A DNA stretch of 64,000 nucleotides, taken from Mycobacteriales bacterium. GTDB taxonomy: Bacteria > Actinomycetota > Actinomycetes > Mycobacteriales > JACQDL01. How positions within the stretch are numbered: the stretch's first letter is position 1; each line of letters begins with the position of its first letter. The notes beneath the pieces were generated by a model, which had not been told where the DNA came from, did not search any database, and was given only the letters and a program-made list of their open reading frames with translations. The stretch covers positions 307 to 64,306 of the forward strand of contig DATILL010000020.1 of NCBI GenBank assembly GCA_035476575.1, in the 5' to 3' direction. The position numbers and the translations under genes were made by a program. Of this stretch, positions 2,725 through 34,625 are shown piece by piece.

Positions 2725-3054
2725 CCTGCCCAGGCTCGCGGGCGGCGCCGCGGTAAGACTCAGGCGGGTGGCGCCGCCGTAAAGGTCGTAGCAAGGACCT
2801 GGTGAGTCCTGACGCTGGCGTCGTCCGCCGAGAGCCTCGGCGGCAGCTACCACCAGGTCAGTCGGCGACGACGGGCCCCCGCGCTGCTCGACCTCGCCGC
2901 GGCGTCAACGCCACGCGCCCGTGGCTCACCCACCAACCTGACCACCGCCGAGCGGCGACGGTCGCCTTCCGCTGCACACGGCGACGGCTGGACATGTCGC
3001 GCGTCACGGTCCGCTTCTCCTCACGTATGGACGCGGCCGGTATTTAACCGCGAG

Positions 3055-3193
3055 CCGGCCCCTCTGTAGCGGTGTCGCCGAGGCTCGCTGGGCCCCGCGG
3101 CACGGGGAGGACCGGCAACGGGGGGTTCGTAAGAACGCGAAGCTGCTCACCGCAGTCGAACGGGAGACGTTCGTCCGGACATGCGTGCTGAGG
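3055..3193 (+). pseudogene. Relic of the upstream region plus first ~25 codons of a tyrosinase-like gene (paralogue of 29855-29992)
   Basis: Direct nucleotide alignment to 29855-29992, about 80% identity over the coding part (aagaacgcgaagctg...tgcgtgctga). The start codon is lost and the frame is broken. Confidence 0.6.
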
Positions 3194-3279
3194 TCCTTCT
3201 CACGTTCGTCTCACGCCGTGCTGGGCCGCCTCCTTGGCTCGGGCTGGACGGGCTAGCCCGAGAAACGAATGGGGCAGGG

Positions 3280-7663: not shown

Positions 7664-7672
7664 GGACCGCAC

Positions 7673-8044: not shown

Positions 8045-8366
8045 GCTGACCGCGGCGGTGCGCGACACGGTAGCTGGCCTGATAGCACAGCCACTGGCCG
8101 CCGCCGACGACGAGCGGGCGCTCGCCGAGATCTCGTCCGAGCGGTACGACAGCCTCGCCGTGCTGGACTGCGTCGGCCTGGTCGAGCAGCGCTTCGGCGT
8201 CGAGGTCGACCTCGTCGAGGACGACCTGCGCACCTCGTTTCGCAGCGTCGCCTCGATCGCCGCGCTGGTCGAGCGCAAGCAGCACGACGCCGCCGTTCTC
8301 GGAGCCGCGTTCCCCGCGGCGCCCGGACCTTCGGTCGGCGCGCCGCCCGCGGCGGCCGGCCAGTGA
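8031..8366 (+). CDS. Free-standing acyl/peptidyl carrier protein
   Basis: 111 aa. The YDSLAVLD motif provides the phosphopantetheine-attachment Ser in a DSL context, and helix II follows (VGLVEQRFG). RBS GGAGCAGGAGGA. Confidence 0.7.
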   Translation: MTRAELTAAVRDTVAGLIAQPLAAADDERALAEISSERYDSLAVLDCVGLVEQRFGVEVDLVEDDLRTSFRSVASIAALVERKQHDAAVLGAAFPAAPGPSVGAPPAAAGQ

Positions 8367-12988: not shown

Positions 12989-14285
12989 GGTGGCCGTCAC
13001 CACCACGCTGCGGGCGCTTGCCCACGAGCGCGCCCAACCGCTGCGCCAGCGCAGCTACCGCCGCATTGCCGCGGCCATGCTGGTCACCAACATGGGCAAC
13101 GGCATGCAGTTCGTCGCCAACGTCTGGCTGATCCTGACCCTGACCGGCAGCCCGCGCGCGGTCGCCCTGGTCCTGCTCACCGCCGCCATCCCCGGGGTGA
13201 TCTTCGGCCCGGTGATTGGCGTGGCCATCGACCGGTTCCACCGGCGCTGGGTGTACGTGACCGCCGACATCGTCGCCGGATCGGTGCTAGCGACGATGCT
13301 GCTGCTGCGGCTCACCGGGTCGCTGCAGACCTGGCAGGTCTTCGCGATGGTGTTCCTGCTCGGGCTGACCGAGTCGACCGCGGTTCCGACCGGGACGACG
13401 CTGGTTCGCGAGATCGTGCCGGTGCGCGGGCTGCTCGCGGCCAACGCCACCACCGGAGTCGCGGTGCAGATCGGCAACGTCACCGGCGCCGCCGTGGGTG
13501 GCGTGCTGATCGCGGTGACCTCGGTCGATGCGGTGCTGGCGGCCAACCTCGCGTCGTTCGTCATCTCGGCGCTGTTTATCGCCGGGGTGCACACGACGCG
13601 GCGGATCGAGAAGGCCGGCGGTGACGGCTGGCGGGCGTCGATCCGGCGGGCGGCCAGCGGTGTCACGTACCTCCGCGAGCACCCCAAGATGGTCCCGTCG
13701 TACCTGATGCTGCTGGTGCTGTTCGCCGTGCTGTACCTGCTGAACACGCTGCTCGCCCCGTACGCCATCGACGTTCTCGCGGTCGGGGCGCAGGGGCTGG
13801 GGCTGATCGACGCGATGTTCGCCCTCGGCGCGATCCTGGGCGGGCTGGCCCTGCCGCTGCTGACCGCCCGGCTGAACCGCGACCGGCTGGCCGGCATCGG
13901 GGTGATCGGCCTGGGCATCGCGCTGGTCGGGCTCGGCGGGGCTGACGGGCTCGCCGCGCCGATGCTGCTGTACGCGCTGTCCGGGGTGAGCTTCCAGTCG
14001 TTCTACATCTTCCGCACGCGGGTGCAGGAACAGGTGCCGATCGGCCTGCAGGGGCGGGTGATGGCGCTGCTGATCACCAGCGTCGGGCTGTGCCGGCTCG
14101 CGGTCTACGGCCTGCTGGCGATCTTCATCTCGGAGGTCACGCTGCGGGCGATCTACGCCGGCGGTGGGATTGCGCTTGCTCTGCTCGGTGTGGCCGTCAC
14201 CGTCCGCGCCTTCCAGCGGCCGTTCGCCTCGGCGCCGCCGGAAACCGACGACGTGCTCGAACCGGTCGCTGTGGGAGGGAGCTGA
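12981..14285 (+). CDS. MFS transporter (EntS/MFS_3-like), putative exporter
   Basis: 434 aa, 12 predicted TM. A GTG start at 12981 or 12990 is possible, and 12990 has better spacing from GAGGAG. Confidence 0.8.
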   Translation: MAEVAVTTTLRALAHERAQPLRQRSYRRIAAAMLVTNMGNGMQFVANVWLILTLTGSPRAVALVLLTAAIPGVIFGPVIGVAIDRFHRRWVYVTADIVAGSVLATMLLLRLTGSLQTWQVFAMVFLLGLTESTAVPTGTTLVREIVPVRGLLAANATTGVAVQIGNVTGAAVGGVLIAVTSVDAVLAANLASFVISALFIAGVHTTRRIEKAGGDGWRASIRRAASGVTYLREHPKMVPSYLMLLVLFAVLYLLNTLLAPYAIDVLAVGAQGLGLIDAMFALGAILGGLALPLLTARLNRDRLAGIGVIGLGIALVGLGGADGLAAPMLLYALSGVSFQSFYIFRTRVQEQVPIGLQGRVMALLITSVGLCRLAVYGLLAIFISEVTLRAIYAGGGIALALLGVAVTVRAFQRPFASAPPETDDVLEPVAVGGS

Positions 14286-14288
14286 GCC

Positions 14289-15581
14289 ATGCCGAACCCT
14301 GCTGTGCTGCTGCTGGGTGGCCTCTCGGTCGCCTGGAACCAGCGATATCTGGACGCCGCACATGCCCGCGGCCTCGCCGTCCTGGTCGCCGACGCGCCCG
14401 GCCCGCACGTCGCGCCGCTGCTCGCCGGCTGGCCGGCCAGCCGCCCGCTGGCCGAGGTCGCCGAGCTGCCGCCTGGCGACGTGGCCGGCATCGTGGACCG
14501 GGCCGCCACCTGGTCGGCACGGTACGACATCCGCGGCGTGTGCTGCCTGCGCGAGGAGTACGTCGAGGCGACCGCCTGGGTGGCCGACCTGCTGGCGCTG
14601 CCCGCACCGGGCCTGCGGGCCGCCCGGGTGTGCCGCAACAAGTACCTGCAGCGCCGCTACCTCGCGGCCTGGAGCCCGGCCGCTGAGCTGGTCGGGCCGG
14701 ACCGGCGAGCCGACGCGGTCCAGGAGTGGACCCGGTTCCCGCTGGTGGTCAAGCCGGTCGGCCGGCTGGCCAGCTCCGGGGTGCGGCTGGTCAGCGGGTC
14801 GTGGGAGCTGCGGGACTGCTTTGCCGACTACGGAGCGGACGAGGTGCTGCTGTTCGAGGAGCGGCTCCTCGGGCAGGAGTACTCGGTCGAGTCACTCAGC
14901 CAGTCCGGGCAGCTCCGCTACACCGAGGTCACCGAGAAGCGGACCACCGAGCACGGGTCGGCGTACTTCGTCGAGATGGGCCACACCACGCCCGCGCCGG
15001 GCCTGGTCGCGACCGACCGCACCGCGCTGCTGGCCGCCCACGAGGCGGTGCTGGCCCGGCTGGGCTTCGGCACCGGGATGGCCCACGCGGAGTACCGGCT
15101 GACCGGCGACGGAGCGGTACGGCTGATCGAGATCGCGGTCCGCCCACCGGGCGACAGCATCCTGGCGCTGCACTGGCTCGCGACCGGTACGCCCCTGGAG
15201 GACGCCCTGGTCGGGCTCGCCGTGGGGGAGCCGGTGGCCATCCCGACCGCCCGCCGGTACGCGCGCCAGGTGTACCTGCCGCATGACGCGGGGGTGCTGG
15301 ACGGGTTGACCGTCGATCCGGCGCTCGGGGTGCGGCCGCTGTGGTTCAGCCCAGCCGAGGTGCGCGCGCAGGTAGCCGCGGCCGGAGCGGCCGGGGACCC
15401 GCCGGCGCTGCGCTGCGTCATGGCGCTCAAGCCGGCCGGCACGCCGCTGGCACCGATCCGCGAGTCAGGGGACCGGGCCGCGATGTTCGTGCTGGATGCC
15501 GCCACACCCGCGGAGCTGGATGAGCTCGAGGCTCGGTGCCGGGCGGCGATCACGGTACGGGTCACGCCGGACAAGAACTGA
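14289..15581 (+). CDS. ATP-grasp carboxylate-amine ligase (second copy)
   Basis: Colinear paralogue of 11696-12988 (RVCRNKYLQRR...FPLVVKPVGRLASSGV...HAEYR...LIEIAVRPPGDSI). Confidence 0.8.
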   Translation: MPNPAVLLLGGLSVAWNQRYLDAAHARGLAVLVADAPGPHVAPLLAGWPASRPLAEVAELPPGDVAGIVDRAATWSARYDIRGVCCLREEYVEATAWVADLLALPAPGLRAARVCRNKYLQRRYLAAWSPAAELVGPDRRADAVQEWTRFPLVVKPVGRLASSGVRLVSGSWELRDCFADYGADEVLLFEERLLGQEYSVESLSQSGQLRYTEVTEKRTTEHGSAYFVEMGHTTPAPGLVATDRTALLAAHEAVLARLGFGTGMAHAEYRLTGDGAVRLIEIAVRPPGDSILALHWLATGTPLEDALVGLAVGEPVAIPTARRYARQVYLPHDAGVLDGLTVDPALGVRPLWFSPAEVRAQVAAAGAAGDPPALRCVMALKPAGTPLAPIRESGDRAAMFVLDAATPAELDELEARCRAAITVRVTPDKN

Positions 15582-15620
15582 CTGAGCAACCTGTCTGAAC
15601 AAACTATCGGGGGGATAACG

Positions 15621-16787
15621 GTGATAGCGCTTACCTCGCTGCGAGGGGCAGCGCAGGCCGCATCGGACTGGCCGGCCCAGGCCGACCTCGCCAGCGTGGC
15701 GACCGAGCTGGGCAGGCGGCCGCCGCTGGTCGCCGCCGCCGACTGCCGATCACTACGGGACCGGCTCACCGAGGTCGCGGCCGGCCGGGGCTTCCTGGTC
15801 CAGGCCGGCGACTGTGCCGAGCTGTTCGACGAGGTCTCGGCCCACACGACCACACGCAAGGCCGCCCAGCTCGCCGAGCTGGCCGACCTGGTCGAGGCGC
15901 GCAGCGGGCTGCCGGCGGTGAGCGTCGGCCGGATCGCCGGCCAGTTCGCCAAGCCGCGGTCGCACCAGACCGAGACCGGGCCGGGTGACCTCGAGCTGCC
16001 GGTCTACCGCGGCGACGCGGTGAACGGCGCGGCCGCCACGCCCGCCGCCCGCCGGCCCGACCCGCGCCGGATGCTGACCGCCTACGACAAGTCCGCGGTC
16101 GTGCTCGGCCACCTGGCCGGCAGCTACCCGACGGTGTACGCGAGCCACGAGGCGCTGCTGTTGCCGTACGAGACCGCGCTGCTCCGCACCGACGCCGCCA
16201 CCGGTTCCCGGTACGGCTCCTCGGCGCACCTGCTGTGGGTGGGGGAGCGGACCCGCCAGCCGGACGGCCCCTGGGTGGAGCTGCTGGCCGAGGTAGCCAA
16301 CCCGGTCGCGGTGAAGCTCGGCCCGACCGCGACCCCGGCCGACGTGACCGCGCTGCTGCGGCGCCTGAACCCGGCCGGTGAGCCGGGCCGGCTGGTGTTC
16401 ATCGCCCGGATCGGCGCGGACCGGGTGGCTGACGTGCTACCGGACCTGGTCGCGGCGGCCGGTACCGCCCAGCCGGTATGGATCTGTGACCCGATGCACG
16501 GCAACACCGTCCGCCACCCGGACGGCCGCAAGACGCGGGCGCTCGCGGACATCCTGGCCGATGTCAGCGGGTTCGTCCGCGTGCTGCGGGGCGCTGGCGG
16601 GCACCCCGGCGGTATCCACCTGGAGACCTCCCCGGACGACGTCACCGAGTGCGTCGGCAGCCGGGCCGACATCGCCGGCGCGTCGCTGCCGCGGTACTGG
16701 ACCGGCTGCGACCCCCGGCTCAACCCCGGCCAGGCCCGGGCCGTGGTGGCCGCCTTCGTCGAGGCGCTGGACTCATGCTCGGGCTAG
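15621..16787 (+). CDS. Class II 3-deoxy-7-phosphoheptulonate (DAHP) synthase
   Basis: RIAGQFAKPRS and CDPMHGNT class II DAHPS motifs. At 388 aa it is short, like pathway-dedicated copies. Confidence 0.85.
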   Translation: MIALTSLRGAAQAASDWPAQADLASVATELGRRPPLVAAADCRSLRDRLTEVAAGRGFLVQAGDCAELFDEVSAHTTTRKAAQLAELADLVEARSGLPAVSVGRIAGQFAKPRSHQTETGPGDLELPVYRGDAVNGAAATPAARRPDPRRMLTAYDKSAVVLGHLAGSYPTVYASHEALLLPYETALLRTDAATGSRYGSSAHLLWVGERTRQPDGPWVELLAEVANPVAVKLGPTATPADVTALLRRLNPAGEPGRLVFIARIGADRVADVLPDLVAAAGTAQPVWICDPMHGNTVRHPDGRKTRALADILADVSGFVRVLRGAGGHPGGIHLETSPDDVTECVGSRADIAGASLPRYWTGCDPRLNPGQARAVVAAFVEALDSCSG

Positions 16788-18334
16788 ACACGCTGACCCC
16801 GCGCGAGGTGGCCCGGCTCGCCCGCCAGCCCGGGGCCCGGATCGAGCTGCCGGAGCCGGCCGCGGACCGGATGGCCGCCTCGGTGCTGCTGCGCGACGAG
16901 CTGGTCGCCACCGGCCAGCCGATCTACGGCGTGACGACCGGCTTCGGGGCCAACAACATCAACCACATCTCGGCCGCCCGGGCCACCGCCTTGCAGGCCA
17001 ACCTGGTCGAGTACCACCTGGTCGGCAGCGGCCCGCTCGCGGCGCCCGAGGTGGTCCGGGCGACCATGCTGATCCGGGCCAACTGCCTCGCCCGCGGCCG
17101 GTCCGGGGTACGGCCGGAGGTCGTGCGGCTGCTGCTCGACTGCCTCGCCCACGACATCCTGCCGCCGATCCCCGAGCGCGGCTCGGTCGGCGCGAGCGGT
17201 GACCTGGTACCGCTGTGCTACCTGGCGAACCTCCTGGTCGGCCGGGGCGAGGCGGTGGTCGCGGGACGGTGGCAGCCGGCCGACCAGGCGCTGCTGACCC
17301 ACGGGCTGCGGCCGCTCGCCCTGCAGCCGAAGGAGGCGCTCGGCCTGATCAACGGCACGTCGTTCATGGCCGGCTTCGCGGTCCTCGCGGCGGCCGGCGC
17401 GGCCGAGCTGGCCCACGCCGCCGAGGTGTGCACCGCGCTCACGGTCGAGGCGCTGCGCGGCAACCGCGGCCCGTACGAGCCGGACACCCACCGGCACAAG
17501 CCGCACCCGGGCCAGCAGCGCAGCGCCGCGGCGGTACGCGGGCTGCTGGCCGGCTCGACCCTGGCCTGCGACCACGACGAGGTGCTGCGGGCCAACCCCG
17601 CCCTCGCCGGCCGGGCGCACCAGCGGCTGGACCACCCGATCCAGGACCGGTACTCGCTGCGCTGCGCCCCGCACGTGATCGGCGTGCTGCGCGACACCCT
17701 GGACTGGGTCGACCGCTGGCTGCACGTGGAGATCAACTCGACCAACGACAACCCGCTGTTCGACCCCGACACCGGCCAGGCGCACAGCGGCGGCAACTTC
17801 TACGGCGGCCATGTCGGCCTCGCGATGGACACCCTCAAGGTGGCCGTGGCGAGCGTGGGCGACCTGCTCGACCGGCAGCTCGCCCTGGTGGTCGACGACA
17901 AGTACAGCAACGGCCTGCCCGCCGGCCTGGTGACCACCGGCGGCGGGCTGCACCACGGCTTCAAGGGCGTGCAGCTCGCCTGCTCCGCGGTCGTTGCCGA
18001 GGCGCTCAAGCTGGGCATGCCGGCCACCGCGTTCTCCCGCTCTACCGAGGCACACAACCAGGACAAGGTGAGCATGGGCACGATCGCCGCCCGCGACGCC
18101 CGCACCGCCGTGGAGCTGGTGGGCCAGGCGACCGCGCTGCACCTGACCGCGCTGTGCCAGGCCGTCGACCTGCGCGGGGTGGACCGGCTCGGCGCCGGCA
18201 CCCGCGCCGCGTACAACCTGGTACGCAAGCACGTCGGCTTCGTCGACCGGGACCGGCGGCTCGACACCGAGGTGGCCGCGCTCGCCGAGGCGATCGCCAC
18301 CGGGGCGCTACGAGAGGCGGTCGGCGATGCGTGA
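16775..18334 (+). CDS. MIO-dependent aromatic amino acid ammonia-lyase/aminomutase (HAL/PAL/TAL/TAM family)
   Basis: GSVGASGDLVPL (Ala-Ser-Gly MIO triad), YGVTTGFG, NDNPL. ATG 16775 overlaps the DAHPS gene by 13 nt. Confidence 0.9.
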   Translation: MLGLDTLTPREVARLARQPGARIELPEPAADRMAASVLLRDELVATGQPIYGVTTGFGANNINHISAARATALQANLVEYHLVGSGPLAAPEVVRATMLIRANCLARGRSGVRPEVVRLLLDCLAHDILPPIPERGSVGASGDLVPLCYLANLLVGRGEAVVAGRWQPADQALLTHGLRPLALQPKEALGLINGTSFMAGFAVLAAAGAAELAHAAEVCTALTVEALRGNRGPYEPDTHRHKPHPGQQRSAAAVRGLLAGSTLACDHDEVLRANPALAGRAHQRLDHPIQDRYSLRCAPHVIGVLRDTLDWVDRWLHVEINSTNDNPLFDPDTGQAHSGGNFYGGHVGLAMDTLKVAVASVGDLLDRQLALVVDDKYSNGLPAGLVTTGGGLHHGFKGVQLACSAVVAEALKLGMPATAFSRSTEAHNQDKVSMGTIAARDARTAVELVGQATALHLTALCQAVDLRGVDRLGAGTRAAYNLVRKHVGFVDRDRRLDTEVAALAEAIATGALREAVGDA

Positions 18335-19673
18335 CCCGCGGGCTGCGGTCCGGGAGTACTCCACCGGCCGGCACCGCGCCGAGGCCGCACCCCGGCCGCC
18401 CCGGCTCCTGATGCAGCCGCTGCGCGAGCGGCTGCGGCTGATCGCGGCGGGCGAGCTGGCCGTGGCGGAGTGGCTCGCCGCCGCCGACGAGTGGAGCGCC
18501 ACGGCCGACGAGCGGTACCGCGCCTGCGTCGAGCTGCGCCCGGCCGGGCAGCCGGTACGGCTCGCCGTCAAGGACACCATCGACGTGGCCGGCTTCCCCA
18601 CCCGGCTGGGGCTCCGCCGGCACCGGCACTACCCGCGCCGGTCCGCTGTGGCGCTGCGCGGGCTGCCGGTCAACGCCAAGGTGGTGACGACCGAGCTGAA
18701 CATCGGCATCGGCTCCGGTTGCGTCAACCCGTACTTCCCGCACATCGACCCGGCCGGCTCCAGCACCGGCTCCGGGGTGGCCGTGGCGGCCGGGATCTGC
18801 GACGTGTCGCTCGGGACGGACGTGCTCGGCTCGGTGCGCTGGCCGGCCGGGCGGTGCGGCGTCGTCGGCCTGCGCACCACGCACAGCGAGCGGCGGCTGG
18901 CCGGGGTCTTCCCGCTGTCGCCGTCGATGGACGCGCCCGGCTGGGTGGCCCGGGCCGCCGACGACCTGGCCGTGCTGGCCGACCGGATCGGCCTCGACGG
19001 CGACGGCGCGCCCGGACAGTACCGGATCGGGCTGGTGCGGGAGGTGCTCGACGGCGGGTGCGAGCCGGAGATCCTGACCGCGCTGGAGCTGTGCCACGCC
19101 GCGCTGGCCGACGCTGGCCACCGGGTCGAGGGGGTACGGCTGGGCGAGCTGTGGCGATGTCGAGGCATGGCGTGGGACCTGTGCGCCCGCGAGGCCTGGG
19201 ACGGGTACCAGGTCTGGCGGCAGTGGATCTCCGACGACCTGCTCGACTCGACCCGGCGTGCACTCGAGGCGGGCGCGCGGATCGGCGACGGGCGTTATGC
19301 CGAGCTGCGCGCCGAGCAGCAGCGGCAGCGGGCCGGTGTGGCCGAGCTGTTCGCCCGCCAGGAGGTCGACGCCTGGCTGCTGCCGCTCGACCCGGACGTG
19401 CCGTGCCCGCCCGACGCGGCCGAGCGTGTCACCGCCACCAGCATCCCGACCCCGGCGGACGACCCGGCTGGCTATGACCGCGCGGTCGGCTACACGCCGG
19501 TGGCGAGCTTCGCCGGCCTGCCGGCGATCACCTTCCCAGTCGGCCGTGGCACCACGACGGGCGCGCCGCTCGCGATGCAGCTCGTCGGCCCGCCCCGATC
19601 CGACCGTAGGCTGGTCGCGCTGGCCGCCGACGTTGGCCGGCGCCTCGGCGACCTCGGCTTTGTCCCGCGCTGA
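18327..19673 (+). CDS. Amidase-signature enzyme (second copy)
   Basis: VKDTIDVAGFPT, AGSSTGSGVAVAAG, GTDVLGSVRWPA. Alternative start at ATG 18411, where the N-terminus aligns with that of 10425-11699. Confidence 0.8.
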   Translation: MRDPRAAVREYSTGRHRAEAAPRPPRLLMQPLRERLRLIAAGELAVAEWLAAADEWSATADERYRACVELRPAGQPVRLAVKDTIDVAGFPTRLGLRRHRHYPRRSAVALRGLPVNAKVVTTELNIGIGSGCVNPYFPHIDPAGSSTGSGVAVAAGICDVSLGTDVLGSVRWPAGRCGVVGLRTTHSERRLAGVFPLSPSMDAPGWVARAADDLAVLADRIGLDGDGAPGQYRIGLVREVLDGGCEPEILTALELCHAALADAGHRVEGVRLGELWRCRGMAWDLCAREAWDGYQVWRQWISDDLLDSTRRALEAGARIGDGRYAELRAEQQRQRAGVAELFARQEVDAWLLPLDPDVPCPPDAAERVTATSIPTPADDPAGYDRAVGYTPVASFAGLPAITFPVGRGTTTGAPLAMQLVGPPRSDRRLVALAADVGRRLGDLGFVPR

Positions 19674-19692
19674 AACACCGAAGGAGAAGCAC

Positions 19693-20418
19693 GTGCCACG
19701 TACCGTCCTCGTCACCGGTGGCGCGACCGGCATCGGCTTCGCGGTCGCCACGACGTTCGCCCAGGCCGGCGACCGGGTCATCATCACCGGTCGCCGCGAA
19801 CAGGTGCTCACCGAGGCCGCCGGCCGGCTAGGCGCGACCCCGCTCGCCTTCGACGCCACCGACCCTGAGGCGGTCACCAAGGCGGTCGCCGCCCTGCCCG
19901 ACCGGGTGGACGTCGTGGTCAACAACGCCGGCGGCAACACCGACTTCGCCCAGCCGGACGCCGCCGACGACGACCTGTCCGCGCTCGCGGCGAGCTGGCG
20001 GGCCAACCTGGAGGCCAACCTGGTCTCCGCCGTGCTCGTCACCGCCGCGCTCACCCCGCGGCTGCCCGACGGCGGCCGGGTGATCACGATCGGCTCCATC
20101 GCGGCCCGTACCGGCGCCGGTTCCTACGGCGCCGCGAAGGCGGCGGTCGAGGCCTGGACCACCAGCGTCGCCGCCGAGCTCGGCCCACGCGGCATCACGG
20201 CCAACGTCGTCTCGCCCGGGCTGACCCTCGGCACCGAGTTCTTCGGCGACCGGCTCACCGTGCAGCGCCAGCAGCGGCTGATCGACGCCACGCTGGTCAA
20301 GCGGGCGGGCACCCCGGACGACGTCGCGGCCACCGTGTTCTTCCTCGCCTCGCCAGCGGCCCGGCATCTCACCGGACAGGTCTTCCACGTCAACGGTGGC
20401 GCCTATCTCGGGCGGTGA
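19693..20418 (+). CDS. Short-chain dehydrogenase/reductase
   Basis: GTG start 7 nt after AAGGAG. TGGATGIG cofactor motif and SYGAAKAA (YxxxK). Confidence 0.85.
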   Translation: MPRTVLVTGGATGIGFAVATTFAQAGDRVIITGRREQVLTEAAGRLGATPLAFDATDPEAVTKAVAALPDRVDVVVNNAGGNTDFAQPDAADDDLSALAASWRANLEANLVSAVLVTAALTPRLPDGGRVITIGSIAARTGAGSYGAAKAAVEAWTTSVAAELGPRGITANVVSPGLTLGTEFFGDRLTVQRQQRLIDATLVKRAGTPDDVAATVFFLASPAARHLTGQVFHVNGGAYLGR

Positions 20419-24030: not shown

Positions 24031-24125
24031 GATGCTGAAGGCGACATCGTCAAACCCCGGCGCGCCGGTGGCAGGCCAGTACATGAGTGCTTGAAACTAC
24101 AGGTCGACACCCCACCGCCATGGCC
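24031..24125 (+). pseudogene. Relic of tyrosinase-like gene codons ~24-55 (complementary to the relic at 3055-3193)
   Basis: gatgctgaaggcgacatcgtcaaaccccggcgcgccgg...ccagtaca aligns to 29986-30040 of the intact gene. Contains stops and indels. Confidence 0.5.
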
Positions 24126-24202: not shown

Positions 24203-25096
24203 TTAGTAAACTTGCGGCTCGGCCCACACCGCCGTACCGGACATACAACCGAAAGGAGTCGCGACTACCAGGATGATCCGTCGCGCTCCTTTAATCGACA
24301 CATCGATGTGCGCAGGCCGACCGTATTGTGCACCTGCCGAAGCCACCATTTCCGAGGAGTCCTCCACGCCATCCACGTTTAGGTCGGCATAGACCTTAAA
24401 GGATACAGAAACACCTCGGTTGAATTTCTCTACATCGTCGCTGACACCGACCTCGGCCTTGAATCTCTGATATTCTGCGCCCAGATCGTAGGCAGCCTGT
24501 CCCTCGCTACAGAGTGTTTCCTTAACTCCGATGCTGCGCTGGTAGCTTTTTTCGCTCAAGCGCCAGCTTCCGGTGAGCCATGAGTCACCAGTAGCGTTTA
24601 GGTCCACAAGGTAAAGCGGTGTTGTCGGTTTGGCCGATAAACTGGGCGTGCCGGATTTCCCAGCAGATGATTGTGCTTGTGGGGTACTACCGGCTGTGAC
24701 GCTCGTGGTAGCTGTCGGACGGCCAGCGGAAGTACCCGGTGATCCGGCGCCACCGGTCGCCGGATCATGTATGGCATGCGAATCGTGCCGGAGATAGGCA
24801 TCCAGGACGCCCCCTAGTATCGACGTGCCTAGGGCTATTAATATTAGCGAGAAGATAACCTTGAGGCCAACAACACGCCGCCATTGACCCAGCAGCAGGA
24901 ACGCACCAGACGTAACTGCAACGAGGCCAAAAAAACTCGCTAGGACCAAGGTGCCTGAATTGACCAGGACGACAATTCCGCTTAGGTTGGAGACAATGGA
25001 GAGCCCTGCACTCAGTCGATGCCGGAGCCGCTTCCCGGAACTCTCAGGCTCCTTCGAGAGCTGATCGTCATGTACCATCGTTCGATGCCTCACCAT
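24203..25096 (-). CDS. Membrane-anchored protein with a C-terminal NPCBM-like domain
   Basis: Markedly lower GC than its surroundings. 3 TM helices, a Ser/Thr/Pro linker, then YQRSIGV...YQRFKAEVGVSDD...VSFKVYAD...AVWAEPQV, which resembles the NPCBM/NEW2 pattern. Start at M47 (25096) or M53 (25078) of the ORF. Confidence 0.6.
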   Translation of the reverse strand: MVRHRTMVHDDQLSKEPESSGKRLRHRLSAGLSIVSNLSGIVVLVNSGTLVLASFFGLVAVTSGAFLLLGQWRRVVGLKVIFSLILIALGTSILGGVLDAYLRHDSHAIHDPATGGAGSPGTSAGRPTATTSVTAGSTPQAQSSAGKSGTPSLSAKPTTPLYLVDLNATGDSWLTGSWRLSEKSYQRSIGVKETLCSEGQAAYDLGAEYQRFKAEVGVSDDVEKFNRGVSVSFKVYADLNVDGVEDSSEMVASAGAQYGRPAHIDVSIKGARRIILVVATPFGCMSGTAVWAEPQVY

Positions 25097-25194
25097 CACG
25101 CCGCGGCCCATGGGAAGATATGTCGGCGAGATCCTACTACCTAGCCCGTTCAACCAGCCGCCGAGCAGTCCCGAGGCCGCCGCCGGACCTGCTG

Positions 25195-25400
25195 CTGTAC
25201 AGCAGCGATACCGGCCACCACCGGCTCGCAGCACTCGGCAACGATGCTAACTGAGCGTGAACGGCCATCACCAACCGCCAGACCGGCAGTTCGGGACTGA
25301 AGGCGGACATCGTCAACCCCGGCTCGCCGGTCGCAGGCCAGTACAACAGATGACGGTGTTCATGGTGCTCGCGCTCCCGAACCCGGAACGGTTCTCGATG
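25195..25400 (+). pseudogene. Third decayed copy of the tyrosinase-like 5' region (upstream region plus early codons, with deletions)
   Basis: cagcgataccggcc... and gaaggcggacatcgtcaaccccggc...ccagtaca align with 29866-30040. The core is 25 nt identical. Confidence 0.45.
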
Positions 25401-25532: not shown

Positions 25533-27272
25533 ACGCCGTTTCTGCGGTGGGTGATTGGGCCTGGTGAAGGGGCGTCCGGGGTGCTGTGCGGCTGGGCGGG
25601 TGTGACCGGGTGCCTGATGTGCTCGGGTGGGCGCCGGTTCCACGGGCCGGCCGGGTGGGTTGTCGGGACAGGGGCGGGTGGGTCAGGCGGGGTGCGGGGC
25701 GTGGATGCGGGTCCAGGCGGTGGCCAGGTCTTCTGCCCAGGCCCAGCCGGGTGGGGTCTTCAGGATGCGGTTGCGGGCGTGTCTGGCCAGGCGGGCGGGG
25801 GCGGAGAAGAGCCGGAACCGGAGCATCTTCGGTTCGGCTTTGGCCAGGTCGCCGTCCAGGGCGATCAGTCGTGCCAGGCCAGCAGCGTGACCGCGAGGGT
25901 GGCCAGCTGCAGCCAGGCACTGTTGCGGCGGTGGTCCTTCGACGGTAGCCGGGCGGCGCCGCAGGCCTTGGTCTGCTTCGTCTTGTCCTCGACGTGGGCC
26001 TGGGTGCGGTGCCGGGCATCCAGCCGCTGGACCCGCCCGGCGGGGGTGGCAGCGGCGAACGCCCCATACCGCCAGCGCGCGTCTTGGCTGAGCTCGGCCT
26101 GCTCACCGGGCTCGCGCGGGCTACGGCGGGCGGTCACCGGCAGGTCGGCCGGCGACCCGGCCAGCTGGTCCCCACCAGCGCAGTGCCGCAGCAGCCCGGT
26201 CAGCTCCACCACCCGGGCCGTCTCGTCGGCTTTGCCGTCCGCGCGCAGGGCGGTGCTCCAGCCGTTCTCGCGCAGGGTGTCGATCGCGGCCTTGGCGCGG
26301 GCGTCGACGGGCCAGCCGGCGGAGCACCCCACCCGCCGTCCCCGCCGCCCATGTGTTGCGGCGGTGTTCAGCCCGGTCAGGTGATCGACCAGGTTATGGG
26401 ACGCACCGGCCCCGTCCACGGTCACCAGCAGATCACCTCGCCACGCCGGCGGCAGCTGCGCGACCGCCGCATCCAAGACAGCGATGTGATCGGCAGCGGT
26501 GAACGACCCGGCCGACCCCGGCCGCGACATCGCCGCCAACGAACCACCCACGTTGGTGCACCAGGCGGTCAGCGGATGGAAGCCATAACCTTTGTAGCTC
26601 GGTTCGGCGCCGTCCTCATCCGAGGCCGCCTGGGTCACCGTGGCGTCCAACCGGACCACCACCACCACCGCCCGACCCGGCTCCCCAGCAGCGGCGGGTC
26701 TGCGTAGCCCGGTCCCCGCGACCCGGACCGCGGGCAGGCCACCATGCCGGTCAACGATCGCCGCCCACGCCCACGCCTACGCGCGGGCCCGGGCCAACCG
26801 CCGACCCGGTAACCCCTCGCCACCCAACCGATCCGCCAGCTCATCCAGCCCCCGCAGCACCGTCGTGTCCGACGCGCCACCACCGGGACCGAAGATCTCC
26901 TCCTGCCCAGCCAGCGCCTCCACACCGGTCAACGCCGTCGCCCCCGCGGCCAGCGCGCACACCGCATCGACCAGCAACCGGCCCCGGTGCCGCAACGGGC
27001 TGAACCCCGCACGCGCCACCACACCCGCCAGGTCGCCGGTCAAGCCCAACCGGTCAGCCAGCAGCCCCGGCAGCACCACCCCGGCATGCACAACCGTCCC
27101 GGCCCCGCCACCTCGACCCGCAACCTGTTCGACCACCCCAGCGCGGGATCGGCCACAGCCAACCCACCCCCGCTACGCTGCACCACGAAGGTGCTCCTTC
27201 CAAAGACACGGTACTTGTCTCAGCAACTCATATCGCCCCTGGCCAGGAGCACCCTCCACGTTCAGACACGCC
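25533..27272 (-). mobile_element. IS1380-family insertion sequence, inactivated (boundaries tentative)
   Basis: Encloses the transposase pseudogene. The left end CGCCGTTTCTGCGGTGGGTG and the right-end reverse complement (CACCCTCCACGTTCAGACACGCC at 27250-27272) form an imperfect inverted repeat. The ~1.7 kb size fits the family. Confidence 0.4.
25683..27136 (-). pseudogene. IS1380-family DDE transposase pseudogene
   Basis: ORFs 26777-27136 and 25865-26668 are in the same frame, interrupted by an in-frame TAG at 26774-26776. The C-terminal LIALDGDLAKAEPKMLRFRLFSAPARLARHARNRILK... continues only after a 1-nt frameshift at about 25865. Family-typical YKGYGFHPL and LPS...N..WLQLA blocks are present. 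Confidence 0.75.
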
Positions 27273-29369: not shown

Positions 29370-29672
29370 TCAGTCCGGTGCGGTGGTCGGCACCTCGACG
29401 ACGAGGTCGGCGTAGTCCGGATGCCGCTCGATCCAGCCCTTGATGAACGGGCACAGCGGCACCGCCCGCAGCCCCTTGGCACGTATGTCGTCCAGCGCGG
29501 CCCGGACCAGTGCGCTCCCGACCCCGTTGCCCCCGACCGACTTGTCCACCTCAGTGTGGGTGAACACCACCAGTCGGCCGCGGCGGTGGTAGGCGGCGAG
29601 CCCGACCTGCCGGCCGTCGAGCTCCACCTCGTACCGCTCTTTGTCCGACACGTCTGTCACCGTCACATCCAC
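29370..29672 (-). CDS. Small GNAT-fold N-acetyltransferase (YjdJ-like)
   Basis: About 100-aa protein, DKERYEVELDGRQVGLAAYH...HTEVDKSVGGNGVGSALVRAALDDIRAKGLRAVPLCPFI. GTG start at 29672 or 29666. Confidence 0.7.
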   Translation of the reverse strand: MDVTVTDVSDKERYEVELDGRQVGLAAYHRRGRLVVFTHTEVDKSVGGNGVGSALVRAALDDIRAKGLRAVPLCPFIKGWIERHPDYADLVVEVPTTAPD

Positions 29673-29917
29673 GCCCCACAGTCTGCCCTGGCTAGCTGGC
29701 GACACGCCCGCGGCTAGTCGCCGGCCCGGTCCAGCGTGCGGGTGTGCGCGGCAAGGCCCGAGACCGGTAGCCCCCCGCCATGGGTGGACAGATTGCGTGG
29801 TCCTAGTCCGCATTCTGTCCACCCACGGACACACCGCCCGTATCAGGCCGGGCGCCGGGCCCTCTGTAGCGATACCGCCCCGACTCGCCGGGCGGGGGAC
29901 ACGGGGGAGGCAGTCAC

Positions 29918-32722
29918 ATGGGAGTGCGGAAGAACGCGAAGCTGTTAACCGCTGCCGAGCGGGAGGCCTTTGTCCAGGCCTGCGTGCTGATGAAGGCGGA
30001 CATCGTCAACCCCGGCGCACCGGCCGCTGACCAGTACAGCAAGTGGGACGAGCTGGTCGCGATCCACCGCATGATCCAGAATGCGAACGCGCCCGGCGCT
30101 CCCAACGTGAACTTCGGCCACGGCGGGCTGGGGGCGTTCAGCTTCCTGAGCTGGCACCGGTACTTCCTCCACGTCTTTGAGCAACGGCTGCAGGGCTACG
30201 TCCCCGGCGTGATGCTGCCGTACTGGGACTGGACCGATCCGGCGCCGCTGCTGACCGACACGTTCCTCGGGCCGAACGGTGTCGCCGGCACCAACGTCGT
30301 GAGCAGCGGCTACTTCGCCCCAGACGCCCCGGGCACCGGCGGCAACCCGACGCCCATACCCGTCTGGTGGCCCGCCGGGCTGACCGGGTGGAACCTGGCC
30401 AACGGCTTCGGCACCCTGTCCGGGCCGCTGCGGCGGCGGACCTCGCCCGTGTCGGGGCTGCCGAGTGTCACCGACCTGCAGACCGTGCTGGCCCGGGCCA
30501 CCTACTCGTCGTTCCAGAACACCCTGGAGGGAGGAGCGGGGCTGGCCTCCGGCAACCAGCTCCACAACGGCCTGCACGGCTGGGTCGGCGGCCCGAACGG
30601 GCACATGAGCTCGCTGACCGGCTCGCCGTTCGACCCGATCTTCTACCTGCACCACTGCAACATCGACCGGCTGTGGGCCATGTGGCAGCTCGACGGCCAC
30701 GCCGACGAGTACCCGGTCAGCGGCGGCAGCCCCCAGCACCACCGCAACGACATCATGTACCCGTGGACCGGTGGCGCCCCCGGCTACAGCAGCAACCTGT
30801 CGTTCGGCGCCATCGTGATGCCGGACTTCAGCGCCCTCGGCGCCCAGCGCAACGTCGACACCCTGGACCACCGGGCGCTCGGGTACACCTACGACTGCCT
30901 GCCCGTGATCGGCCTCGGGCTCGACCGCACCGGCAGCATGCTGGGGATGACCCCGGACCCGATGACCGTCGCGGCCCCCGACGTCACCAAGTGGGAGGCG
31001 GCCAAGCGCGGTGTGTCGGCGTTCCTGCAGGACTGCGAGACCGTCTATGCCAGCGGGGTCACCTACGTCACGGCCGGTGTCAAGACCTTCCGCAGCCTCG
31101 GCACGGGCAACGACTTCACGCCGGTCTTCCCCGGGACGCCGTATGGCTTGGTGAAGAACGGCGGCGCCTACAGCCGCGCCGTCTTCGACAGTGCTGTGGC
31201 CGGCCTGACGCCGGGTGGCGGGACGCCGCTGGCCGACGCGCTGACGGACGTGCAGAACACCCTGGTCACGCCGCCGTTCGGGTCGGTGCCGGCGGACGAG
31301 CAGCGCTACCTGGCCATGCTCACCGACGGGCTGCTGACCAGCGGATCGCCGCTAGCCTCGATCCCGGACGGGAGCCTCGCCACCACGGCGATCTTCGCGA
31401 TGGGCTTCGGTACGGCGGCCGACGTCGACTACGCGACGCTGGCCAGCGTGGTGGCCAAGGGCCGCACCCTGCCCACCGGCCAGGTCTTCCACGGCGAGAA
31501 CGCCGGCACGATCGACAAGTTCTACTCCAACGCGCTAGCCCAGGCGCTCGGCTTCACCGCGGTATTCGACCCGGCGCTGGAGCTGTTCGCCGGGGAGCAC
31601 GTGCACCTGGACCTCAGCGTGACGTCGGCCGACGACGCGGTGCTCCTTACCGCGCAGGGGATGGACTTCGTCGACGAGAACTGGAGCTTCATGCTCCTCG
31701 GTCCCGACGGCGAGGCGGCGTACGGCGACGGCATGGGACACGGGGGCGCGGGACACGGAAGCGCGGGGCACGGCATGGCGATGGGGCCGCGGCCGCACGT
31801 CACGGCCCGGCGGGCGACCGGACGCCTGTCCCTGCTGCTGCAACGCGACAACGCCGACCATTCAGCCTGGGTGGGCAACTGGCGGCTGATGGCCGCCTAC
31901 CGCGCCCCGGACATGGGCGCCATGGTGATGGCCGACCTCGGTGAGCTGATGTACCCGGTGGCCGCCGGGCCGGTACGGGGGCCGCGGTGGTCCCGACTGC
32001 TGCGCCGGCCGACCGCCCGGCAGCCGGCGCGCAGCATCGTCGCCGCACCACGCCACCGGCTCGACATCCGGCCGGCGGGCACCAACAACGACCGCAGCCA
32101 GGCGTGCAGCCTGGTCGTCAACTTCTACGCCCGCACCCGGCTGCGGCTGGAGCTGGTCCCGCGGAAGGGCAGCCGGACGCCCGGCAAGGAGCTCGCCTTC
32201 GACCTGAGCACGGACGTGCTGGCCGGCACCGCGTCCGTCACCCGGACGTTCGCCCGGCTGGTCGCACCCTCGGTCGACCTGCGGTCGCTGGCCAGCTCGC
32301 AGCAGATCACCGACCTGCCCCGGTCGGCCCGGATCAAAGGCGCCAGACCGGCCCGGCTGGACCAGGGCCGGGTGCTCGCCGAGATGGAGAACAAGGAGGC
32401 CGGGCTCGGCCAGCCCCGCGATGAGGAGCTGCACGTCGTGCGCCACGGGGACGGTCCGCCGCACGTCCACATCGAGGACACCACGGTCGCCGGCCCGTAC
32501 CACGTCGGGATGTACGTCGAGGGCACCTACTGCCCCGACGGCGGCGACACCGGTACGGCGACGCACCAGCACGAGGCGCCCGATGCACACGCCGAGGGCG
32601 GAGCAGGCCACGACAGTGGGAAGGGCCACGACGACGGCAGTACCCATAGCCCGAACTGCGTTCTGGAGCACTTCGGGCGGCTGCTCACTGCCTCCGCGGC
32701 GATAGAGCCCGAGTCCCGCTGA
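29918..32722 (+). CDS. Tyrosinase (type-3 copper) domain fused to a vWA domain and a His-rich C-terminal region
   Basis: CuA: FGHGG...SWHRYFLHVFE. CuB: HNGLHGWVGG...FYLHHCNIDRLW. vWA/MIDAS: LDRTGSM...GGGTPLADAL...MLTDG. His-rich tracts GMGHGGAGHGSAGHGMAMG and THQHEAPDAHAEGGAGHDSGKGHDDGSTH. No signal peptide. Confidence 0.8.
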   Translation: MGVRKNAKLLTAAEREAFVQACVLMKADIVNPGAPAADQYSKWDELVAIHRMIQNANAPGAPNVNFGHGGLGAFSFLSWHRYFLHVFEQRLQGYVPGVMLPYWDWTDPAPLLTDTFLGPNGVAGTNVVSSGYFAPDAPGTGGNPTPIPVWWPAGLTGWNLANGFGTLSGPLRRRTSPVSGLPSVTDLQTVLARATYSSFQNTLEGGAGLASGNQLHNGLHGWVGGPNGHMSSLTGSPFDPIFYLHHCNIDRLWAMWQLDGHADEYPVSGGSPQHHRNDIMYPWTGGAPGYSSNLSFGAIVMPDFSALGAQRNVDTLDHRALGYTYDCLPVIGLGLDRTGSMLGMTPDPMTVAAPDVTKWEAAKRGVSAFLQDCETVYASGVTYVTAGVKTFRSLGTGNDFTPVFPGTPYGLVKNGGAYSRAVFDSAVAGLTPGGGTPLADALTDVQNTLVTPPFGSVPADEQRYLAMLTDGLLTSGSPLASIPDGSLATTAIFAMGFGTAADVDYATLASVVAKGRTLPTGQVFHGENAGTIDKFYSNALAQALGFTAVFDPALELFAGEHVHLDLSVTSADDAVLLTAQGMDFVDENWSFMLLGPDGEAAYGDGMGHGGAGHGSAGHGMAMGPRPHVTARRATGRLSLLLQRDNADHSAWVGNWRLMAAYRAPDMGAMVMADLGELMYPVAAGPVRGPRWSRLLRRPTARQPARSIVAAPRHRLDIRPAGTNNDRSQACSLVVNFYARTRLRLELVPRKGSRTPGKELAFDLSTDVLAGTASVTRTFARLVAPSVDLRSLASSQQITDLPRSARIKGARPARLDQGRVLAEMENKEAGLGQPRDEELHVVRHGDGPPHVHIEDTTVAGPYHVGMYVEGTYCPDGGDTGTATHQHEAPDAHAEGGAGHDSGKGHDDGSTHSPNCVLEHFGRLLTASAAIEPESR

Positions 32723-32804: not shown

Positions 32805-33263
32805 TTGAGCTCCCCCGGCGGCAGCGCTGAGGCGAGGTTCCAAGAGGGCCTGCGCTTGGCCAAGACAACGGGTGCCAGCGAGCTGGAGTCCAGGGTCGCA
32901 TCAGTCGGTGGGCGACTTGGCCGCGCGATCCCGTTCTTCGGCTGGGGAATCGCCACGGCAGGCGTCGGCTACGACATCCATACGGGCAAGGATCCCGGTA
33001 AGGCGATCTTCTCCGGACTCGCCGGCGCCACCGGAGCCACCGTGGTTGGCTCAATGGTTGGCGGTCCCATAGGACTCGCCGCCGGTGCCGCGGTTGCCGC
33101 CGGTATTGCCGTTGGGCTGGGTGCGGACTGGTTCTACGACCACGTTGTCCCCGATGGTGTGAAAACGAAGATCGACGAGGGTCTGCGGGCCGTCAGAAAC
33201 TCGATCGGAGACGCTGGGAGAGCCATTGGCGATACGGCGAAGGGTGTGTGGAGCATCTTCTAG
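32805..33263 (+). CDS. Glycine-zipper membrane-associated protein (possible orphan toxin-like C-terminal module)
   Basis: TTG-initiated ORF. GLAGATGATVVGSMVGGPIGLAAGAAVAAGIAVGLG glycine-zipper stretch. The start is uncertain. Confidence 0.4.
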   Translation: MSSPGGSAEARFQEGLRLAKTTGASELESRVASVGGRLGRAIPFFGWGIATAGVGYDIHTGKDPGKAIFSGLAGATGATVVGSMVGGPIGLAAGAAVAAGIAVGLGADWFYDHVVPDGVKTKIDEGLRAVRNSIGDAGRAIGDTAKGVWSIF

Positions 33264-34059: not shown

Positions 34060-34338
34060 CTATTCTCGTGGCCGGTAGGCGTCCGCTCGATGGTCGATGG
34101 CGATGACCTCGATGAGGTGGTTGAGCTCGTCGATGCGGTAGATGACGCGATAGTCGCCACGACAGGCGCTGTGTAGTCCGGCCAGTTGAAGTTGGAGAGG
34201 CTTACCGACGCGGTAGGGGTTGGCTGCGAGGGATCCGTAGAGCAGCTCGACGACGGCGGCGGCGATCTTCTCGGGTAGTCGACGCAGTGCGCGTCCGGCC
34301 GGTGCAGTCCAGGCGATCTCGACCTCGCTGTAGCTCAT
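34060..34338 (-). CDS. RelE/ParE-family type II toxin
   Basis: 92 aa. GDYRVIYRIDELNHLIEVIAIDHRADAYR is typical of the RelE/ParE C-terminus. 4-nt overlap with the upstream antitoxin. Confidence 0.85.
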   Translation of the reverse strand: MSYSEVEIAWTAPAGRALRRLPEKIAAAVVELLYGSLAANPYRVGKPLQLQLAGLHSACRGDYRVIYRIDELNHLIEVIAIDHRADAYRPRE

Positions 34339-34625
34339 TGGCCGGTGGCCAGGCGACGTGCCTCGTCTTTGCTGAGAACGGTGGCACCCGCGGTGGCGAG
34401 GTCCTCCAGGGCTGCCTGGATGTCGCTCATGAGCGGGGCATTGGTCATGACATCGAGTGTCTCCTCCAGTGATTCAAGATCGTCGACACTCAAGACGACC
34501 GCCGCGGGGCGGCCGTGCCGGGTGATCACAATGCGGCCGTGCTCGCGCTGGAGGCGGTCGACGACCTCCGACAGGCGGTTCTTCACATCCGCAAGCGGCA
34601 TCTGCTCGGAGATCGACATAGCCAT
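34335..34625 (-). CDS. Phd/YefM-family antitoxin
   Basis: 96 aa. PLADVKNRLSEVVDRL...IVITRHGRPAAVVLSVDDLESLEETLD is the classical Phd/YefM pattern. Confidence 0.85.
   Translation of the reverse strand: MAMSISEQMPLADVKNRLSEVVDRLQREHGRIVITRHGRPAAVVLSVDDLESLEETLDVMTNAPLMSDIQAALEDLATAGATVLSKDEARRLATGQ

Follow-up and report, generated by a model that had tools for sequence, protein, structure and literature searches.

Tyrosinases serve as models among the copper enzymes and find wide use in biocatalysis. Two questions recur in their study: by what route copper reaches the enzyme, and what maintains its latency. The known solutions are either a caddie that is a protein in its own right or a C-terminal domain that can be cleaved off. 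In the Streptomyces system the caddie MelC1 supplies copper to the tyrosinase MelC2 (PDB 1WX2) and inserts a tyrosine in its active site, the system having both a melC1 gene and hitch-hiking export through the twin-arginine translocation (Tat) route. In the pro-tyrosinases of fungi and plants and in vsTyr, the core carries a fused C-terminal domain rich in β-structure, with a Cys/His motif on a disordered loop that is proposed to deliver copper and an aromatic placeholder that confers latency. In the fungal pro-tyrosinase this motif is a CXXC “copper grappler” carried by a disordered loop of the C-terminal β-barrel (PMC4157443); as for the placeholder, caddies insert a tyrosine, while the C-terminal domains of fungal and Verrucomicrobium enzymes insert a phenylalanine (PMC4157443, PMC10526336). 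The tyrosinase of Bacillus/Priestia megaterium (BmTyr; PDB 3NM8 and 8HPI), on the other hand, consists of one domain of about 290 amino acids (aa). Here, we analyze a 64,000-nucleotide stretch of a Mycobacteriales metagenome-assembled genome (MAG) (contig DATILL010000020.1; hereafter the window), and in particular a gene coding for a tyrosinase that is followed, in the same polypeptide, by a von Willebrand factor A (vWA) domain and two β-sandwiches.

BmTyr is the best structural match to residues 1–300 of the window protein, with an identity of 29%. The two proteins share the six histidine ligands, the asparagine after HisB1, and the FxNxxEG motif, and both are devoid of a Cys-His thioether, a signal peptide, and a caddie; however, the window protein possesses about 630 further conserved residues, which form the vWA domain and the two β-sandwiches. 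Its catalytic domain is also homologous to that of MelC2 (E = 1.3e-26), but the window locus has neither a melC1 gene nor Tat hitch-hiking, and any helper function would have to be exerted in cis by folds unrelated to MelC1. Compared to the fungal, plant, and vsTyr pro-tyrosinases, the β-sandwiches have no detectable structural likeness to the known C-terminal domains, a vWA domain is interposed, and the protein belongs to a different polyphenol oxidase (PPO) clade; moreover, no site of proteolytic activation is known for it, and, unlike vsTyr with its TAT signal, it lacks a signal peptide. With regard to the non-catalytic part, the bacterial vWA proteins 4FX5 (Catenulispora acidiphila), BatB (3IBS), and the LapA vWFA domain (9NO5) exhibit a vWA domain with a metal ion-dependent adhesion site (MIDAS) followed by a β-sandwich, as found here, but none of them is fused to an oxidase, and probing the PDB by phmmer with residues 320–545 did not retrieve any sequence-level relative.

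An earlier reading of the same DNA (the original prediction) had set the protein against the MelC1-dependent enzymes. This contrast was overstated, in that the best structural matches are the caddie-independent tyrosinases of B./P. megaterium; since BmTyr needs no caddie, caddie independence is by itself unremarkable. What appears notable, according to the sequence data, is the obligate fusion with a vWA/MIDAS domain, the presence of two new β-sandwich domains with predicted metal-binding loops, and a conserved aromatic residue on the linker between them.

The open reading frame (ORF) starts with ATG, stops with TGA, and codes for a protein of 934 aa (99 kDa, pI 5.96). An identical protein is present in the public databases on a contig of 266 kb, under the NCBI name “tyrosinase family protein [Mycobacteriales bacterium]” (a third-party annotation entry derived from a MAG). 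The GC content at third codon positions (GC3) of the gene is 0.93 and resembles that of core host genes. The scan for promoters and terminators around the gene was uninformative.

The original prediction divided the protein into a tyrosinase, a vWA domain, and a His-rich C-terminal region, and this three-part reading agrees with the results of Pfam, Foldseek, and the conservation analysis; the motifs on which it was founded all lie at the residues given for them (WHRYFLH at 79–85, HNGLHGW at 216–222, LHHCNIDRLW at 244–253, and DRTGS at 336–340). The Pfam family PF00264 matches residues 41–257 with 143.1 bits (gathering score 22.6; E = 2.1e-41), bacterial tyrosinases in the PDB are matched by sequence at E values of about 1e-27 to 1e-28, and the AlphaFold2 model superimposes on BmTyr in Foldseek with E = 5e-13, a target template modeling (TM) score of 0.79–0.81, and a root-mean-square deviation of 3.3 Å, in accordance with the four-helix-bundle fold. 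The CuA site is formed by H50, H68, and H80 and the CuB site by H216, H220, and H246. Neither these six histidines nor E204 and N217 vary among 30 close homologs; among the 182 full-length relatives on which the conservation counts are based (49 of them less than 50% identical to the query), the copper-binding histidines are conserved in 178–182, E204 in 180, and N217 in 170. Hence, no ligand is missing on alignment, and both copper sites are complete, as had been proposed.

The Glu/Asn pair to which E204 and N217 correspond comprises residues tied to monophenolase activity. Furthermore, the motif FQNTLEG, located at residues 199–205 and preceding CuB, matches FQNxxEG, the signature of the bacterial PPO “type h” clade that includes BmTyr, ScTyr, GriF, and NspF (PMC11803259), and on this basis the protein can be placed in that clade. 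The sequence features described so far are best explained if the protein is a tyrosinase that is capable of catalysis and belongs to the bacterial BmTyr/ScTyr clade. The possibility that it represents a MelC2 equivalog was rejected, the score with NCBIfam NF047834 being 117.8 against a cut-off of 450, and the NCBIfam model BagH/FevF gave a weak match (92.7 bits versus a cut-off of 630). The window protein and Streptomyces MelC2 have in common an N-terminal MxVRKN start.

The second part of the protein adopts, in the AlphaFold2 model, a vWA fold: Foldseek retrieved 4fx5 with E = 1.6e-8, and BatB, the integrin I-domain, and LapA vWFA with target TM scores of 0.66–0.71, with SpaC, integrins, and complement factor B also among the matches. 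The predicted MIDAS set consists of D336-x-T338-x-S340, T436, and D470, the latter embedded in a TDG motif. Its conservation among the 182 relatives is almost complete (D336 in 181, T or S at position 338 in 180, S340 in all, T436 in 178, and D470 in 180), and the MIDAS residues align one by one with the D-E-S-G-S and T-D-G motifs of a Haloarcula protein (see below) whose vWA domain passes the Pfam threshold. Model and alignment thus confirm a vWA fold with an intact predicted MIDAS; of the domain as it had been predicted, the fold and the MIDAS-like residues stand, whereas its limits move from 325–520 to about 328–545.

The C-terminal region (residues ~546–930) was modeled by AlphaFold2 as two β-sandwiches with a predicted local distance difference test (pLDDT) score of 84.7 and a predicted TM score (pTM) of 0.81. 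Thus, the region is His-rich in the sense that it does contain the two tracts that had been noticed, that is GMGHGGAGHGSAGHGMAMG (residues 605–623) and THQHEAPDAHAEGGAGHDSGKGHDDGSTH (residues 882–910), but it is about 390 residues long rather than about 330, and it is built as two domains. Pfam did not retrieve anything consistent for these β-sandwiches, even at E ≤ 10, from the window protein or from three homologs. In Foldseek the best match of the C-terminal part was weak (the uncharacterized Legionella DUF4785 protein 4kh9, with E = 1.3e-5 and TM scores of 0.36–0.39), and the others were generic.

Each β-sandwich harbors a disordered loop. In 133 members of the main family the fraction of His, Cys, and Met residues is 0.28 in loop 1 and 0.22 in loop 2, compared to 0.06 in the rest of the protein, an enrichment of about four-fold; the sequence of the loops varies within the main family while their composition is kept. 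In the window protein loop 1 is of a His/Met type, and most relatives have C-x-H-C-C. Loop 2 contains at least two histidines in each of the 133 members, with H883-x-H885 nearly invariant, and its common pattern in the main family is CP[DE]H...GHxH...CGPxC. The two cysteines at its ends (C872 and C914 in the window protein) are either both present (92 members) or both absent (39), only two members being discordant (Fisher p = 1e-31, not corrected for phylogeny), and this covariation points to a metal site common to both, or to a clamp.

The linker between the two β-sandwiches contains the motif P-x-x-A-G-P-x-R-G-P-x-[Y/F/W], in which G688 is conserved in 180 of the 182 relatives. Position 691 is occupied by Tyr in 113 of them, by Phe in 58, by His in five, and by Trp in four; it is counted as aromatic in 180. 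W691 of the window protein, replaced by Tyr or Phe in the relatives, is therefore a candidate for the active-site placeholder, on the grounds of its conservation.

In close homologs the protein may also be prolonged by a Lys/Arg-rich tail of 10–64 aa (e.g., KKKMKNKKIKKKK), which is present in 22 out of 30 and absent from the window protein and its nearest relative; possible ligands of this tail are polyanions, e.g., nucleic acid, membrane, or polyphosphate.

The phylogenetic distribution of the architecture was then considered. It was found in more than 400 protein clusters from more than ten phyla. A word-indexed search retrieved 467 proteins, the best 120 of which are full-length with few partials, about 900–960 aa long, and 58–73% identical; the source names among these 120 include Mycobacteriales, Planctomycetia, and Bryobacteraceae. 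In contigs sampled at one genome per species, the carriers belong to Rokubacteria, Acidobacteriota, Chloroflexia, Flavobacteriaceae, Saprospiraceae, Cytophagales, Ignavibacteriales, Nannocystaceae, and β-proteobacteria. The relatives originate largely from metagenomes of soil and groundwater; the carriers also include two isolates, namely Aquabacterium humicola RJY3 and Nitrosospira briensis Nsp8. The annotation of these proteins goes no further than “tyrosinase family protein” or “VWA domain-containing protein”. With regard to its occurrence, the architecture is thus not unusual, although the family is uncharacterized: in the literature searched no bacterial tyrosinase-vWA fusion is described, and wherever the two domains are mentioned together, the proteins in question are separate ones of the mollusc shell matrix.

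An exhaustive phmmer search with residues 320–934 retrieved 175 representatives out of 1.84e9, and the long matches all start at about residue 325–350. The N-terminal PF00264 domain was detected in all nine divergent relatives that were checked (33–44% identity in the module, 926–1221 aa), two of them having its C-terminal part only, and a profile search with the vWA and β-sandwich module retrieved the same family alone. Both the phmmer and the profile search revealed the module in tyrosinase fusions and not on other enzymes; the sole exception to the fusion is P0300 (see below). Since the phmmer search, the divergent relatives, and the profile search point to tyrosinase fusions, the fusion is obligate and old, the module occurring essentially only behind a tyrosinase. 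The fusion is real and full-length, and strong purifying selection acts on all of its length.

The exception, P0300 (L031, 5001–6902), is a protein of 633 aa with a vWA domain and two β-sandwiches and without a tyrosinase, which is found on six contigs and represents a 5'-truncated copy. Where the tyrosinase part would be expected, its locus has a gene for an MNT-type nucleotidyltransferase; a PIN/Phd pair is also close by. P0300 could be either an intact remnant or a functional tyrosinase-less form.

A distant relative is QIO24726.1 from Haloarcula sp. JP-L23 (plasmid CP050015.1; L030, 6001–8877), a protein of 958 aa annotated as “VWA domain-containing protein”. It shows the same order of parts, i.e., a tyrosinase (E = 9e-43), a vWA domain (VWA_2, 42 bits, above threshold), and a β-sandwich (FixH-like), which implies that the architecture reaches into Archaea. 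Its MIDAS, TDG, FAxGxG, and DKFY motifs are colinear with those of the window protein, but the identity is only 24–29%, about 150 additional aa separate the tyrosinase from the vWA domain, and the protein is archaeal, plasmid-borne, and uncharacterized. A 66-aa ORF and a gene for a MarR regulator precede it.

With regard to localization, the window protein has no transmembrane segment (maximum KD19 1.24), no RR/Tat motif, and no signal peptide, and its N-terminus directly starts the tyrosinase fold; a cytoplasmic location is the best explanation of these sequence features. No caddie-like neighbor was detected at the window locus or at about 25 related loci. A conserved caddie or partner gene was also sought through an all-versus-all clustering of the ORFs from the 25 loci and the window, and this candidate was discarded, the clustering having returned only the fusion gene and its shadow frames. 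The scans of neighbors and sequence, therefore, bear out the absence of an adjacent caddie gene and of a signal peptide. The annotated gene contexts vary from locus to locus. The only recurrent neighbor that was observed is a protein of about 1070 aa, which adjoins the fusion gene in three loci of a divergent Acidobacteriota subfamily (L019, 2712–5933; L023, 2524–5949; and L024, 29–2269).

According to these data, we consider as the best explanation, tentatively and with somewhat less than even confidence, that the protein is a cytoplasmic stand-alone tyrosinase whose fused module acts in cis as a caddie. The module would do the work that is done by MelC1 caddies or by the C-terminal domains of the fungal and plant enzymes: copper would be picked up by the disordered His/Met/Cys loops and passed on to the dinuclear site, while the aromatic residue at position 691 would fill the substrate pocket, so that a potentially self-toxic cytoplasmic phenol oxidase would stay latent. 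The MIDAS of the vWA domain would in turn bind an acidic residue of a partner protein, of a substrate protein, or of another subunit, thus coupling docking to the release from latency. The original prediction had suggested that the His-rich tail might serve as a copper donor, and it gains indirect support from the disordered loops rich in His, Cys, and Met, from the covariation of the cysteine pair, and from the parallel with the “copper grappler”; the absence of loop 2 from the divergent subfamilies speaks against it.

This absence is the first of several points that weigh against such an interpretation. In the divergent subfamilies (n = 49) loop 2 is short, with a median of 6 aa, and contains histidine in only four members; loop 1 has at least two histidines in 31 members and fewer in 18; and in some members His tracts are found elsewhere, either at the very C-terminus or in between the two sandwiches. 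Because the divergent subfamilies are devoid of loop 2, copper-capturing loops are not obligatory to the architecture, and the His-rich loops are, as judged from these alignments, a property of a subfamily. Besides, His-rich tracts are not copper-specific, and BmTyr, the closest solved relative, loads copper without any helper. The Foldseek search with residues 540–934 did not retrieve any PPO, hemocyanin, or caddie domain among the top 50 matches. The vWA domain remains below threshold in Pfam (VWA, 13.5 bits with a gathering score of 23.8; VWA_2, 14.4 bits with a gathering score of 27), only one out of five full-length AlphaFold2 models was good (pLDDT 77.7 versus 57–63 for the others), and no member of the family has been experimentally characterized in the literature searched.

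Should the module indeed provide copper and control access to the active site in cis, the tyrosinase-vWA-β family would represent a third arrangement, spread from Actinomycetota to Bacteroidota with a distant archaeal relative and requiring no partner gene. It would provide a self-sufficient, chaperone-free tyrosinase, useful for heterologous expression, and ligand binding by the vWA/MIDAS domain would be directly linked to the control of an oxidase; the cultured carriers A. humicola RJY3 and N. briensis Nsp8 make this reading testable. If, on the contrary, the module is merely a scaffold, the result would be a routine refinement of annotation.

In principle, the same data can be interpreted differently. 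The module might dock a protein or a peptide via the MIDAS, the tyrosinase converting Tyr to 3,4-dihydroxyphenylalanine (DOPA) or its quinone for cross-linking, adhesion, or maturation of a protein or peptide product. The MIDAS is intact and strongly conserved, the succession of vWA and β-sandwich is typical of adhesins and protein-binding modules (such as the SpaC, integrin, and complement factor B structures matched in Foldseek), and tyrosinase and vWA are always fused; yet the 25 loci and the window do not share any conserved neighbor fit to be the substrate, the protein has no secretion signal, although adhesive and cross-linking roles are usually extracellular, and the literature searched contains no experimental precedent in bacteria. 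We therefore regard a protein-directed tyrosinase as unlikely.

We are equally doubtful that the protein is an ordinary tyrosinase, forming melanin or detoxifying phenols, with the extra domains providing stability, oligomerization, or localization and having no caddie-like role. Its catalytic signature is indeed canonical, enzymes of the BmTyr type need no helper, the relatives stem largely from soil and groundwater metagenomes, and bacterial tyrosinases have been proposed to act on the phenolics of wetland and peat soils. Nevertheless, about 630 residues that share 55–70% identity across phyla, together with the invariant MIDAS and linker motifs, exceed what a passive scaffold would need; and the polybasic tail, whose presence in 22 of 30 homologs hints at polyanion binding or localization, is missing in the window protein.

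The remaining interpretations depend on the genomic context of the gene, whose features are listed in Table 1 together with the parts of the protein.

Table 1. Positions in the window of the tyrosinase-vWA fusion gene, of its parts, and of the surrounding features.
Feature	Position	Strand	Evidence or remark
Upstream region and codons 1–24, degenerate duplicate (“relic”)	3048..3191	+	blastn, 74% over 144 nt versus 29848–29990
Biosynthetic-type operon, tightly packed	3181–20418	+	ORF scan
Extra copy of 51 nt encoding codons 25–41	24033..24083	+	85% identical
NPCBM/NEW2-domain protein gene	24203–25234	-	GC3 0.58 versus ~0.93 of host genes
Second extra copy of 51 nt, codons 25–41	25298..25348	+	88% identical
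DDE transposase fragment	25865–26668		
GNAT gene, flanking	29370–29834	-	Neighbor annotation
Shine-Dalgarno-like GGGGGAGG	29903..29910	+	7 nt before ATG; direct sequence reading
Tyrosinase-vWA-β-sandwich-β-sandwich fusion, complete coding sequence	29918..32722	+	ORF listing
Type-3 copper tyrosinase domain, aa 1–300	29918..30817	+	Pfam, PDB, Foldseek
TTA codon, Leu10	29945..29947	+	Sole TTA among the 88 Leu codons of the gene
vWA-fold domain, aa 328–545	30899..31552	+	Foldseek, MIDAS conservation
β-sandwich 1, aa 546–671	31553..31930	+	AlphaFold2 models; no Pfam family
His/Met-rich disordered loop 1, aa 604–626, inserted in β-sandwich 1	31727..31795	+	pLDDT <50
Inter-sandwich linker, aa 672–728, conserved	31931..32101	+	pLDDT 83–87
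β-sandwich 2, aa 729–930	32102..32707	+	AlphaFold2 model
His-rich disordered loop 2, aa 873–915, in β-sandwich 2	32534..32662	+	pLDDT <50; flanked by C872 and C914
Gly/Ala-rich ORF of 152 aa, directly downstream	32805–33263	+	No Pfam match; GC3 0.74
ParE toxin/Phd-YefM antitoxin pair	34060–34625	-	GC3 0.74–0.79; 1.3 kb downstream of the gene

The 5' end of the gene is duplicated, in a degenerate form, 26.8 kb upstream. In this relic the identity by tblastn is 83% over residues 2–24, the ATG is changed into ACG, and the homology ends abruptly at ...GCGTGCTGA. The following codons of the gene have two extra copies of 51 nt, both of which begin at CTGAAGGCGGAC and finish at CAGTACA. When compared with 29848–30041, the breakpoints are sharp (...GTGCTGA / CTGAAGGCGG...CAGTACA). 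The rare TTA at codon 10 and the CTC that the relic carries in its place, both of which had been pointed out in the original prediction, are real. In the other high-GC relatives codon 10 is CTG or CTC and TTA is not kept; as far as these alignments indicate, the TTA is peculiar to the present 5' end of the gene, and a bldA-type control through this codon is not established for a MAG labeled as Mycobacteriales.

The relic promoter lies directly upstream of the first ORF of the biosynthetic-type operon, whose ATG (3181) falls within relic codons 22–23; this position may reflect the capture of the promoter by the operon. The latter codes for three AMP-binding ligases, a prenyltransferase/SHC-repeat protein, an amidase, two ATP-grasp L-amino-acid ligases, and a major facilitator superfamily (MFS) exporter, as well as for a class II 3-deoxy-D-arabino-heptulosonate 7-phosphate (DAHP) synthase and an aromatic amino-acid lyase/mutase; it also includes a possible KAM-like radical SAM protein with no Pfam match. 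The 26.8 kb between relic and gene holds, in addition, an M14 carboxypeptidase gene and a set of genes of atypical composition, i.e., those for the NPCBM protein, the DDE transposase fragment, a DUF11 protein, and the GNAT protein. The NPCBM/NEW2 gene is flanked on either side by one of the two 51-bp copies, in the manner of a small cassette with att-like bounds. This organization is compatible with a recombination event, site-specific or illegitimate, that inserted DNA into the gene at its 5' end; the incoming DNA would have given the gene a new promoter and a new 5' end, and the old promoter may now serve the biosynthetic cluster. The window does not contain any tRNA gene, no recombinase or integrase was found among the ORFs scanned from 3.2 to 29.8 kb, where the DDE transposase fragment is the only element of this kind, and no gene-end duplication that would point to a general integration hotspot was found in the other loci within the flanks examined. 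Together with the transposase fragment, the ParE/Phd pair marks a flexible genomic region.

Such a context might evoke a mobile stress or defense effector, that is, a latent cytoplasmic phenoloxidase triggered via the vWA/MIDAS domain by phage or damage and flooding the cell with quinones or melanin, in analogy to insect prophenoloxidase. The family is patchily distributed over many phyla at 54–68% identity, and it is found in flexible-genome settings, next to the ParE/Phd pair in the window and elsewhere next to TIR-STAND, rve and phage integrases, NERD, a SNIPE/T5orf172 nuclease, or a PIN/Phd pair with an MNT gene; moreover, the 5' end of the window gene bears the att-like footprints. The association with defense genes is, however, anecdotal rather than statistical: PADLOC returned no family at E ≤ 1, neither a phage copy nor a full-length plasmid copy was found, some genomes harbor the gene in housekeeping settings (hem genes; hut genes), and the GC3 is host-like, all of which makes this interpretation very unlikely. 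Still less likely is its most elaborate form, in which the protein would be a self-contained latent phenoloxidase switch that the linker aromatic inhibits and that the binding of a danger-associated ligand (a protein derived from phage or damage) to the MIDAS releases, the resulting quinones or melanin killing or walling off the cell and the gene being propagated by horizontal transfer as a one-gene module of immunity or stress.

Least likely of all is a tailoring enzyme of the neighboring cluster derived from aromatic amino acids (3.2–20.4 kb), in the manner of the o-aminophenol oxidases GriF, NspF, and BagH, given that, in spite of the relic promoter and 5' end directly upstream of the first ORF of the cluster, of its complement of DAHP synthase, aromatic amino-acid lyase/mutase, ATP-grasp ligases, and AMP-ligases, and of the weak BagH/FevF match, the latter scores far under the cut-off, about 10 kb separate the gene from the cluster, with the peptidase gene, the transposase fragment, and low-GC3 genes in between, and no such cluster occurs in the about 25 other loci.

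A few minor features of the locus and of the homologs were also observed. The 152-aa ORF that follows the gene looks membrane-associated and is not kept beside the homologs. The subfamilies of 1000–1220 aa (P0125, P0133, P0134, P0138, P0171, and P0203) have about 150–250 additional aa after the second sandwich, with no Pfam assignment; several of their C-termini end in IP(L/V)xxRxxFx(S/T)xxEAxxxG(F/Y), and some in His repeats of the HDHG type. Finally, in an Acidobacteriota MAG (L008, 8720–8957), tandem direct repeats of about 76 bp, 88–90% identical, are located at the 3' end of the homolog and probably enlarge its C-terminal tail.

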